Part shown: positions 4,525 through 7,630 of the stretch, in pieces
Numbering within the stretch: position 1 is the stretch's first letter
Layout of the letters: each line of letters begins with the position of its first letter
The notes under the pieces: model-generated
What the model was told of the DNA's origin: nothing
What the model saw: the letters and a program-made list of their open reading frames with translations, nothing else
Databases searched by the model: none
Sequence record: DRR723986_777
Strand: one strand, 5' to 3'
Length of the DNA stretch: 35,439 nt
Made by a program: the position numbers and the translations under genes

Positions 4525-4553
4525 TTGGGCCGGCCGGATTCAGACGTTATATG
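4525..4553 (+). promoter_or_regulatory. Sigma70-type promoter of tsaD (TTGGGC-17-TATATG), probably leaderless
   Basis: -10 ends 6 nt before ATG 4560; no SD. Confidence 0.5.
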
Positions 4554-4559
4554 CCCGGT

Positions 4560-5660
4560 ATGACACGCCCGCTGACCCTCCTCGGCATTGAAACCAGCTG
4601 CGACGAGACCGCGGCAGCAGTGATCCGCCTCGCGCCTGACGGCGGGGTCCAGATCCTGTCCGAAAAGGTCCACACCCAGCTGGAAGAACATGCGCCCTAT
4701 CTCGGTGTCGTGCCGGAGATCGCTGCGCGGGCACATGCCGAACTCGCAGACCAGACAGTCGCTGCAGCCATGGCCGACTCCGGCCTGTCCTACACAGATC
4801 TCGACGCGGTGGCAGCAACCTCCGGCCCCGGCCTGATCGGCGGCGTCCTGGTCGGCATGATGACGGGCAAGGCGATTGCGCAGGCAGCGGGCAAGCCCTT
4901 CCTGGCGGTCAATCACCTGGAAGGCCATGCGCTGAGCCCCCGGCTGACGCATGACTGCCCCTTCCCCTACCTGCTCTTGCTGGTCTCGGGCGGGCATTGC
5001 CAGTTTCTGGAGGTGCGCGGCCTTGGCGACTATCGCCGGCTCGGCTCGACGATTGACGATGCCGCCGGCGAAGCCTTCGACAAGACCGCGAAATTGCTGG
5101 GATTAGGATTTCCGGGCGGGCCAGCCGTTGAACGTATTGGCGCAGATGGCGACCCCGAAGCGATAGATTTTCCCCGGCCGCTACTGAACCGGCCGGGCCT
5201 CGACATGAGTTTCGCCGGATTGAAGACAGCCGTCGCCCGCGCCGCCGAGGCAGAAGCGCTGACGGATGCGCGCATGGCCAATATCTGCGCCAGTTTTCAG
5301 GCGGCTATCGTGGACGTGTTGTCGGAAAAGGCCCGGCGGGCGCTCGAGGATTTCAATCCGGGCAATGATTCCGGAAAGCGTTTTGTCGTGGCGGGCGGCG
5401 TCGCCTCGAACAAGGCAATCCGCGCCGGATTGGAAAAAGTGGCCGATGCGGCTGGCGCGGTCCTGATTGCACCACCCATGCGGCACTGTACGGATAATGC
5501 CGCGATGATTGCCCTTGCCGGGGCGGAGCGGCTGGCAGGCGGCCTCGAAAACGAGGCAGGTGACATTGGCGCCGGGGCCAGACCGCGCTGGCCGCTGGAT
5601 GAAGCGGCGGCGAAGTCAGATCCGGCCTATGCGACGGGACGCCGGGGCGCCAAGGCCTGA
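4560..5660 (+). CDS. tsaD: tRNA N6-adenosine threonylcarbamoyltransferase TsaD
   Basis: [52 protein letters not shown]. Confidence 0.97.
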
Positions 5661-5687
5661 AGGGTCTGCTCGAAACGGCTCAACGCC

Positions 5688-5801
5688 TTAAACCACGAAT
5701 TCGGCGAACGACACCATGGTGGCGATCAGGCCAACCGTGAACGGCAGGGCTGCCATAAGGGCAACGAGCGACTGGCGGGATTCGGTTTTCGAAAGGGTCA
5801 T
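5688..5801 (-). CDS. Small (37 aa) single-TM protein MTLSKTESRQSLVALMAALPFTVGLIATMVSFAEFVV
   Basis: ATG..TAA with AAGGA SD, upstream sigma70 promoter, GC3-rich codons, hydrophobic C-terminal two-thirds; below the ORF-track length cutoff. Confidence 0.65.
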   Translation of the reverse strand: MTLSKTESRQSLVALMAALPFTVGLIATMVSFAEFVV

Positions 5802-5850
5802 TGTCTGTGTTCCTTGTTCGGGAACGGCAACATTTGCCGTCCACGAGCTT

Positions 5851-5901
5851 CATATAGCGAAGCCATGAACACAAATCAATGAACGATTTTAAAATTATTC
5901 A
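5851..5901 (-). promoter_or_regulatory. Promoter of small ORF (TTGATT-17-TATATG) with abutting imperfect palindrome TGAACGATTTTAAAATTATTCA (5880-5901)
   Basis: -35 at 5874-5879, -10 at 5851-5856; palindrome matches its reverse complement at 18/22 positions. Confidence 0.6.
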
Positions 5902-5922: not shown

Positions 5923-6522
5923 TCATGGAACGCTGGCGTCCTTCGACAGGCCCGCGAGGATCAGGTCGAGGACTCCTTTCAGCTCCCGCTTCAGTTTCGG
6001 CAGGGTGAGGTGGGAAAACAGCTGCGGGAACCGGAATTTCATCAATGCCGCCTGCATGAATTCGGCAGTTTCATCGAGTCGCTCGAGCGGCCGGAACACG
6101 CCGTCACGAATGCCATCTTCAAGAATCTGCACCAGATAGACACGTTCCTGCGCCATCTGTTCATTCATATACAGCGGGCGTTCGTCCGCCAGAACCTCGG
6201 CAACTTCGAGAATCTTCGCTTTCGCCTCAATCGCCTGATAGGTGCTGACCATGCCGTAATCGAAGAACTCCCGCAGACGTTCGGGCGCAGGCTTCTTCTC
6301 GCGGGCGATCGACGCATAGGCCTGATACATCTCGCCGTTGAATTTGCGGGCCAATGCCTCAGCAATATCCAGCTTCGACGCGAAGAAGCGGTAGATGTTG
6401 CCGGCGGACATACCGCAATCCTTGGCAATCTCCGACATCGTGGTCTTGGCGTAGCCATAATGAAGGATCCGCTCGATGGCGGCATCCAGGATCAGCTGGC
6501 GGGTATCAGTGGTATCGTTCAT
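5923..6522 (-). CDS. TetR/AcrR-family transcriptional regulator
   Basis: TRQLILDAA...GYAKTTMSEIAKDCGMSAGNIYRFFASK HTH; ATG 6522. Confidence 0.95.
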   Translation of the reverse strand: MNDTTDTRQLILDAAIERILHYGYAKTTMSEIAKDCGMSAGNIYRFFASKLDIAEALARKFNGEMYQAYASIAREKKPAPERLREFFDYGMVSTYQAIEAKAKILEVAEVLADERPLYMNEQMAQERVYLVQILEDGIRDGVFRPLERLDETAEFMQAALMKFRFPQLFSHLTLPKLKRELKGVLDLILAGLSKDASVP

Positions 6523-6530
6523 GGAGCCGG

Positions 6531-6569
6531 ACCATACCGGGAAATACTGAAGGATCAATGATTCATTCA
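6531..6569 (-). promoter_or_regulatory. TetR gene promoter (TTGATC-16-TATGGT) overlapped by TGAA-N14-TTCA motif (6548-6569)
   Basis: Motif covers the -35; same end pattern as the palindrome at 5880-5901. Confidence 0.5.
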
Positions 6570-6656: not shown

Positions 6657-6953
6657 ATGCCCCTATTCTGCCTGCACTGCCTGGATAAAACCGATGGTGG
6701 CGCCGAAGCGCGCGCCAAGGCCCGGCCAGCCCACCTGGCTTGGGCGGCGGACCTTGGCGCCTGCGTACGCATGGCCGGACCGCTTCTGGACGAGGGCGGC
6801 AACATGGTCGGTTCTGTGTTCCTCATTGAAGCAGAGGATCTTGCCGCAGCAAAAGCGATCCATGCGCAGGACCCTTATGTCACCGGAGGCGTGTTCGGAC
6901 ACGTCCATATCAACGAGACCCGCTGGGCAATCGGTGTAGGCAAACCCGAATGA
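6657..6953 (+). CDS. YciI-family protein
   Basis: CLDK...RAKARPAHLAW...AGPLLD...GSVFLIEA...DPY pattern. Confidence 0.88.
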   Translation: MPLFCLHCLDKTDGGAEARAKARPAHLAWAADLGACVRMAGPLLDEGGNMVGSVFLIEAEDLAAAKAIHAQDPYVTGGVFGHVHINETRWAIGVGKPE

Positions 6954-7630
6954 GACGCCTCGTTCTGGGAAACCTGAACTATTCCAGCTGGTCGATCCGC
7001 CCACTCATGGTGGCCCGCAAAGTGGGCCTGCCGGTGGAAGAAAGCATCGTGCCGCTCGATTTTCCGGAAACGATAGCACGCCTGAAGGAAATCAGCCCGA
7101 CTGCAAAAGTACCGCTCCTCATCTGGGATAACCAGACGATCTGGGAGAGTCTCGCGATCACCGAATGGATCGCGGAATGGGCCCCGCCTGGCGCAGTCTG
7201 GCCGGAAGACCCGGTCGCCCGCGCTGTCGCCCGCGCCGCCGCCAGCGAAATGCATGCCGGCTTCCCGGAACTGCGCAACAAGTGCCCTATGGATATCCGG
7301 GGCCGGGAGCTTCCACCGGAAATGACCAACAAGCTCGCTGCCGATATTGATCGCATTCAGGAATTGTGGAGCGGCCTGCGGAGCGAGTATGGCCGGAATG
7401 GCCCGTTCCTGTTCGGACAATGGAGCGCAGCAGATGCCTTCTACCTGCCAGTCGTCACAAGATTCAGAACTTATGGCCTGCCGCTCAGCGGTGCTGCAGC
7501 GGATTATTCGGGTGCCGTTCTGTCAGATCCCGACTTCCTGAGACTGGAAGAGCAGGCCAAGGCAGAACCCTGGTGGATCAAATATGGACCGGACGGACGA
7601 TCCAGCGGCTATCTCAAGACGGAAGACTGA
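6950..7630 (+). CDS. Glutathione S-transferase family protein
   Basis: GNLNYSSWSIRP, SPTAKVPLL, WESLAITE, EMHAGF, ADAFYLPVVTRF; ATGA overlap with yciI. Confidence 0.93.
   Translation: MRRLVLGNLNYSSWSIRPLMVARKVGLPVEESIVPLDFPETIARLKEISPTAKVPLLIWDNQTIWESLAITEWIAEWAPPGAVWPEDPVARAVARAAASEMHAGFPELRNKCPMDIRGRELPPEMTNKLAADIDRIQELWSGLRSEYGRNGPFLFGQWSAADAFYLPVVTRFRTYGLPLSGAAADYSGAVLSDPDFLRLEEQAKAEPWWIKYGPDGRSSGYLKTED

Follow-up and report, generated by a model that had tools for sequence, protein, structure and literature searches.

The 37-codon open reading frame that lies behind a tetR gene is a genuine protein-coding gene under purifying selection, and we consider it very probable that its product is a real membrane peptide under TetR control. 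The gene lies in the window, by which we mean the whole stretch of 35,439 nucleotides analyzed (record DRR723986_777); the features of the locus are listed in Table 1. Judged by its sequence, the window is Hyphomonas DNA: the encoded TetR matches that of Hyphomonas sp. CY54-11-8 at 100% identity and that of H. jannaschiana at 93%. The best explanation of the locus is that the peptide gene is monocistronic and sigma70-driven and encodes a 37-aa single-pass inner-membrane protein. An earlier, sequence-only reading had described a palindrome, the promoter TTGATT-17-TATATG, a leader hairpin, an AAGGA Shine-Dalgarno (SD) sequence, and the reading frame, each of which is present on the minus strand where it had been placed. 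Its main proposal, a real small membrane protein, agrees with the conservation, the dN/dS ratio, the promoter evidence, and the single hydrophobic helix described below. What it missed is that the palindrome is a probable TetR operator, the feature that says most about function.

Table 1. Features of the peptide locus, in window coordinates
Feature	Position	Strand	Remarks
tsaD	4551..5660	+	convergent with peptide gene; stops 27 nt apart
37-codon ORF	5688..5801	-	single hydrophobic helix, short polar N-terminus, Pro20, small-residue face (S11, A14, A18, T22, with E7)
Shine-Dalgarno AAGGA	5811..5815	-	9 nt 5' of ATG; unpaired in fold
Leader hairpin, 5'-terminal, 9 bp	5822..5842	-	structure kept, with compensatory changes; core 5824-5840
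-10 box TATATG	5851..5856	-	17-nt spacer to -35; predicted start site near 5845
-35 box TTGATT	5874..5879	-	TTGACA in many sister-family loci
22-bp palindrome TGAAYR-N10-YRTTCA	5880..5901		predicted TetR operator, adjoins -35 box
TetR-family regulator gene (TetR_N + TetR_C_27)	5923..6519	-	predicted repressor of peptide gene
Second operator copy, 1 mismatch	6548..6569		in tetR promoter; predicted autoregulation
YCII-domain gene and glutathione S-transferase-like gene	6657..7630	+	divergent from tetR, across second operator

HNE_0132 of H. neptunium, which is syntenic to the glutathione S-transferase-like gene of the window, is annotated as glutathione S-transferase. No intrinsic terminator was found between the peptide gene and tsaD (window positions 5660-5688); many relatives have a terminator after the peptide gene, unlike the window lineage.

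Conservation and range of the small gene

Only 1 of the 172 ATG-initiated reading frames of 30 to 45 codons in the window has a 19-residue hydropathy mean of at least 2.0, and this sole outlier is the peptide ORF, which places it above chance. To find relatives we used TetR as the anchor, which is present in 202 of 214 Hyphomonadaceae genomes, and studied 136 distinct regions downstream of tetR, a subset of these matches. An ATG ORF of 32 to 42 hydrophobic codons stands behind tetR in 130 of the 136 regions; contig ends cut two, and the peptide ORF is gone from four, which indicates that the peptide is dispensable. Our orthologue filter demanded a proline 15 to 18 residues from the end, so that the invariance of the proline is partly by construction; one of the 130 loci failed it, its orthologue starting with TTG. 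Orthologues were thus retained at 129 of 136 loci (35 to 40 aa, 116 distinct sequences); 105 of the distinct sequences have E7, and 92 have R9.

The sequence-only reading had proposed conservation of the frame and dN/dS in relatives as a check, and both favor a coding gene. The pooled dN/dS of 46 disjoint pairs is 0.165; the two shifted frames give 1.45 and 3.06, and tetR gives 0.07. Of the 561 nucleotide differences, 373 fall at third codon positions. Synonymous divergence of the peptide gene is below that of tetR in the same pairs (pS of 0.26 versus 0.48). A profile of the peptide matches 154 of 214 Hyphomonadaceae genomes and gives 54 matches among 1.84 billion representatives, 53 of them 33 to 68 aa long. 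No profile match at E 1e-4 was obtained in 48 of the 202 TetR-positive genomes, many of which carry divergent versions of the peptide. The gene had been called hidden, which holds only in part, since gene callers predict a "hypothetical protein" in several Hyphomonas genomes, for example those of H. pacifica, H. beringensis, H. atlantica, and H. neptunium (HNE_0135, annotated as 49 aa from an ATG further upstream).

Several loci have additional features. Three (L065, L073, and L080) carry, between tetR and the operator, an additional hydrophobic ORF of 38 aa, which has an upstream region of its own, resembles the main peptide at its end, and is without the central proline. L076 and L093, too, have longer gaps between tetR and the operator. 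A large secreted-looking protein, by inspection possibly a TonB-dependent receptor, is encoded 3' of the peptide gene in three of four loci (L589-L592). One 427-aa protein (P0095) clusters with a 38-aa member of the peptide family; it may be a fusion, or else an artefact of assembly.

TetR is unevenly distributed among the families compared: it is found in 12 of 13 genomes of f1, 11 of 12 of f3, and 10 of 11 of f6, and in 0 of 12 each of f2 and f5. Family f3 includes Candidatus Phycosocius and probably also Terricaulis; our guesses are Caulobacteraceae for f2 and Parvularculaceae for f6. The first 18 f3 and f6 loci all (18/18) have tetR, operator, promoter, and a hydrophobic ORF of 36 to 40 aa, often in tandem twos or threes, with the cassette typically between gpsA and tsaD. 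Of 111 loci surveyed for gpsA, 94 have it close to tetR, and it is divergent from tetR where inspected. The f3 and f6 peptides align poorly with the query family (hhalign, 10% and 1.8%) and their proline is later or missing, and the poor alignment argues against a fixed binding surface. They are positional equivalents of the query peptide and only possible homologues. Divergent Hyphomonadaceae genera have intermediate peptides of 42 to 45 aa (5/5 loci). These can be aligned with the query family (79%, E 1.6e-5), while their ends resemble those of the f3 peptides (1% or less). Searches with the sister-family peptide profiles, which have low sensitivity, gave weak matches inside long frames in 3 of 61 f2 genomes and no match in a set of 30 genomes. 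One f6 genome has an Rrf2-family regulator 3' of the peptide gene (L266:1983-2423).

Promoter, predicted operator, and regulon

The -35 and -10 boxes are kept in position across the orthologous loci; a simple sigma70 scan of the window did not flag the peptide promoter (8/12 matches, no T at position 6). The leader is 44 nt long with an unpaired SD, and across 123 leaders the SD region (last 16 nt) is 80% unpaired. The 5' hairpin persists despite sequence change: in 41 leaders, 84.5% of cells pair and there is compensatory change at all 8 pairs. Its covariation score of 0.416, a value inflated by sequence relatedness, exceeds 500 shuffles and all slid controls. Leader and ORF RNA as a whole have no unusual structure (z of -1.2), and Rfam gave 0 matches, antitoxin RNAs included, at the window region and 20 relative loci. 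The 3' UTR is conserved in neither length nor sequence among 129 loci; CCTCCC-type motifs occur in 47 of these and are missing from 82 and from the window.

Some data from others touch on transcription. GcrA is a sigma70 cofactor, and the H. neptunium ChIP data in S5 Data of PMC7200025 include a MACS2 peak (peak 102, 119495-119631, fold enrichment of 3.56) that covers the operator, promoter, and start of HNE_0135, as well as peak 101 at HNE_0134, the TetR gene (fold enrichment of 6.9). Such peaks are common: the sheet has 2,979 rows, with peak 102 in row 251. HNE_0135 is not among the CtrA-regulon or CtrA-site entries in the searched files of PMC7200025 (files 13 to 23 stood outside the search). 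In metatranscriptome data, contigs of three runs, drawn from two studies, stop at 5834, where no loose end is listed; this signal is weak and unstranded. A contig from a fourth run spans the peptide promoter. RNA contigs, likewise unstranded, continue from the peptide ORF into tsaD. On the plus strand, a promoter-like match at 5866-5895 over the operator, antisense toward tetR, is near chance level.

The pattern TGAAYR-N10-YRTTCA stands 5' of the peptide gene at all 129 loci, exactly at 114, with one mismatch at 14, and with two at 1. With at most one mismatch it is also found before tetR in 89 of 134 regions, compared with 0.5 in shuffles, and some of the misses reflect a wrongly chosen start. 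On a matrix of the operator, the window palindrome scores 41.1, partly by construction because the matrix came from orthologous sites that include a copy identical to it; the next-best sites score 10.5 (the tetR promoter copy) and 2.3. The peptide gene has the strongest operator among the scored sites, on a matrix derived from the peptide-gene sites themselves, and one-mismatch matches to the pattern are mostly low-scoring. Of the four loci that have lost the peptide, one keeps a site with one mismatch, and the other three have none even when two mismatches are allowed. The peptide was found in 0 of the 12 Hyphomonadaceae genomes lacking TetR. A palindrome at both the target and the regulator's own promoter, together with co-occurrence with the regulator, is the pattern expected of a TetR-repressed gene. 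The right arm adjoins the -35 box at the peptide gene and includes it at CC_3452 promoters, which is the geometry of a repressor. Based on these observations, the palindrome is probably the operator of the adjacent TetR, which we infer to bind it.

A test unselected on the motif used the 30 best CC_3452-family loci of an order-wide search. The operator lies upstream of the gene in 21 of 21 TetR-positive and 0 of 9 TetR-negative genomes, a contrast confounded by kinship since all nine TetR-negative genomes are from one family; downstream controls gave 0 of 30, and five TetR-less Hyphomonadaceae genomes had no CC_3452 match. In Henriciella-like loci such as L116, L124, and L128, the tetR stop codon and the left operator arm overlap. 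One f2 genome has 34 exact pattern matches (G315:C1), mostly one near-perfect 22-bp palindrome (see also G255:C14:225185), which is probably a Caulobacter-type intergenic repeat unrelated to the operator.

Beyond the peptide gene, there are 144 exact operator sites in 121 Hyphomonadaceae genomes, and we examined 46 of these (30 supplied and 16 hand-picked). CC_3452/UrcA genes are at 17 sites, 16 of them matched as divergent from an acyl-CoA dehydrogenase. Operons for IorA-type 2Fe-2S/molybdopterin oxidoreductases and genes for SDR/epimerase-family reductases are at 6 sites each, tetR at 4, and at 1 a gene for a flavodoxin-fold NAD(P)H oxidoreductase with a nitroreductase gene behind it; the other 12 are elsewhere. 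This enzyme set suggests, by family names, detoxification of lipophilic or electrophilic compounds. In f3, 26 of 30 sites were examined, of which 7 are at CC_3452, 4 at RND adaptor genes, 2 at tetR, and 13 at other genes; two of the four RND sites have their own divergent TetR, a potential binder. In f6, 0 of the 22 sites examined (of 32) are beside known regulon genes. In five Hyphomonadaceae genomes, the 1.5 kb in front of each of 30 RND adaptor loci contained no operator (best score of 6.3, threshold of 10). UrcA is an uncharacterized periplasmic protein induced by stress (PMC8963506), and CC_3452 is up 2.5-fold under iron limitation (PMC3751524). A CU-rich stretch, AAGGTTTCCTCCC, lies immediately 5' of the ATG in CC_3452/UrcA genes (e.g., L413, L569, and L572) and many peptide genes, has a variant form in TetR-negative genomes, and recurs in 3' UTRs; it is possibly a shared post-transcriptional element.

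Peptide shape and known systems

AlphaFold predicts one helix (residues 5-36, pLDDT of 94). Positions S11, A14, A18, and T22 hold small residues in 91 to 100% of the 116 sequences and share a face with E7. Net charge is 0 to +2 at the N-terminus and 0 or -1 from the proline to the end (116/116). These features agree with a single-pass helix, N-in, that carries a packing stripe; the topology is weakly predicted from charge only. The peptide has no Pfam or NCBIfam family match, a PDB profile search found no family (best E of 0.81), Foldseek gave 0 matches, and ESM Atlas gave unnamed clusters at 0.82 to 0.83 and DUF3948 at 0.76, below the useful range. A signal peptide or exported pheromone was set aside by inspection only: the hydrophobic stretch is ~26 residues, and what would follow a possible cleavage site is an unconserved tail.

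The closest likeness in shape is AcrZ, an E. coli small membrane protein that binds AcrB through a proline bend and hydrophobicity and not through specific contacts, and that lies N-out/C-in with a cytoplasmic polar tail (PMC7267776). Like AcrZ, the peptide is short, forms one hydrophobic helix, and has a proline at its center (the bend is predicted); the S-L-x7-P spacing is shared as well. AcrZ outscores 296 of 300 of its own shuffles on the peptide-family matrix, a result inflated because AcrZ was chosen post hoc. In contrast, hhalign gives a probability of 0.4% (E 0.15), the matrix score of AcrZ is -13.7 versus 26.5 for the weakest family member, and the peptide matches AcrZ in neither Pfam nor PDB, lacks a polar tail, and is weakly predicted to be N-in. 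The Hyphomonadaceae regulon as examined also has no RND pump (0/30 loci); there are four sister-family RND sites. By these comparisons the peptide appears AcrZ-like in shape and is not an AcrZ member by sequence. Since AcrZ acts through its bend and overall hydrophobicity, a functional analogy is reasonable.

Two Caulobacter systems resemble the regulatory side. TipR of C. crescentus is an autoregulated TetR that represses acrAB-nodT and djlA from an inverted-repeat operator (PMC10754441), and its 11-bp arm ends in AATGAAC, similar to the reverse-read right arm of the peptide operator. However, its reported targets differ, and searches of presumed Caulobacteraceae genomes with the window TetR do not point to orthology: there was no match at E 1e-9 in four genomes and 0 of 12 matched at 1e-22. 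UzcRS is a two-component activator with the site CATTAC-N6-TTAA that, like the predicted regulon, governs UrcA-type periplasmic and unknown envelope proteins (PMC8963506), whereas the peptide locus uses a TetR and a different palindrome.

Possible roles

In the mechanism that we propose, TetR would bind the 22-bp palindrome, occlude the -35 box, and repress the peptide gene and itself, together with the genes for CC_3452/UrcA secreted proteins and for several oxidoreductases that depend on NAD(P)H or molybdenum. TetR would be freed from the operator by a lipophilic or electrophilic ligand. The peptide would insert N-in/C-out, bending at Pro20, so that its Ala/Ser/Thr stripe could pack on a helix of a partner membrane protein (a transporter or envelope-stress component), which it would tune during detoxification; its working would be AcrZ-like without its being an AcrZ. 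We give about an even chance to such a role as accessory modulator of a membrane protein in detoxification. The transporter or kinase modulator named in the sequence-only reading is plausible by shape.

The peptide might instead act on the bilayer itself or as a homo-oligomer, co-induced with periplasmic CC_3452/UrcA, with TetR sensing a lipid or acyl-CoA signal. The Ala/Ser stripe is suited to helix self-packing. From family to family the sequence changes but length and hydrophobicity are retained, and tandem copies occur; within the family, however, E7, R9, Q10, and P20 are conserved, which suggests a specific contact. A lipid signal would suit the nearness of gpsA to tetR and the divergence of the CC_3452/UrcA site from an acyl-CoA dehydrogenase, but the TTGACA inside that operator faces CC_3452/UrcA and not the dehydrogenase. 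KstR2 and fatty-acid regulators are among the best PDB matches of TetR, with E values no better than 2e-11. We judge this alternative unlikely. It is a good deal less likely still that the peptide or a fragment binds its own TetR, as a membrane tether or peptide ligand, and so amplifies or locks induction. The tetR-operator-peptide cassette of the three families of stalked bacteria would then be an ancient circuit, complete in itself: the peptide, as the tightest target, would bind the repressor, and a lipophilic-toxin signal would set off an envelope and detoxification response that amplifies itself, each lineage having its own peptide-repressor pair. Such feedback would account for the peptide never occurring without TetR, for the matrix-based rank of its operator, and for an adjacency to tetR that survived rearrangements in three families alongside lineage-wise divergence of the peptide. 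Linkage and joint loss are, however, also expected of an ordinary cassette target gene, the peptide is almost wholly hydrophobic, and there are TetR-positive genomes without a profile match and four loci clearly without the peptide.

Two further proposals of the sequence-only reading are not supported. Type I toxins of the Ibs, TisB, and Ldr classes are small hydrophobic peptides, and the present peptide shares their size and hydrophobicity, has tandem duplicates in a sister family, and faces a convergent tsaD transcript that could overlap antisense across the 27-nt gap. Unlike such toxins, it has a short leader that lacks translation-inhibiting structure and leaves the SD open, a protein repressor in control, no Rfam antitoxin, and no cationic C-terminus, and its inheritance is vertical, syntenic, and mostly single-copy, so that we consider a toxin-like membrane peptide very improbable. 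A dual-function RNA, whose transcript (through a CU-rich 3' UTR or an antisense overlap with tsaD) would be the main effector, is also very improbable. The reduced synonymous divergence relative to tetR, the 3' UTR motifs, and the unstranded contigs into tsaD would fit it; against it, no conserved non-coding base-pairing region emerges from the 3' UTR or Rfam, most loci and the window lack the motif, and third codon positions are free to vary.

The literature searched contains little on this locus. A full-text search found no mention of HNE_0135, and work on Hyphomonas small proteins and TetR is unrelated, judging by title and abstract start. No description of the cassette was found in the openly accessible literature on TipR, UrcA, CC_3452, and AcrZ, "small protein" is absent from the main text of the TipR paper (PMC10754441), and the main text of a marine small-protein survey (PMC12856327) does not name Hyphomonas. 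The operator may be on record elsewhere, RegPrecise and subscription papers being outside the search. What is new to the searched literature is a small-protein family without a library entry together with a predicted TetR regulon, the general kind being already known. The orthologous pair HNE_0135/HNE_0134 is available in genetically tractable H. neptunium. If the peptide modulates a transporter, it would be an independent AcrZ analogue, and if it binds TetR, it would form an unusual peptide feedback loop. The cassette offers a handle on the uncharacterized CC_3452 and UrcA proteins and on the handling of lipophilic toxicants by marine stalked bacteria.
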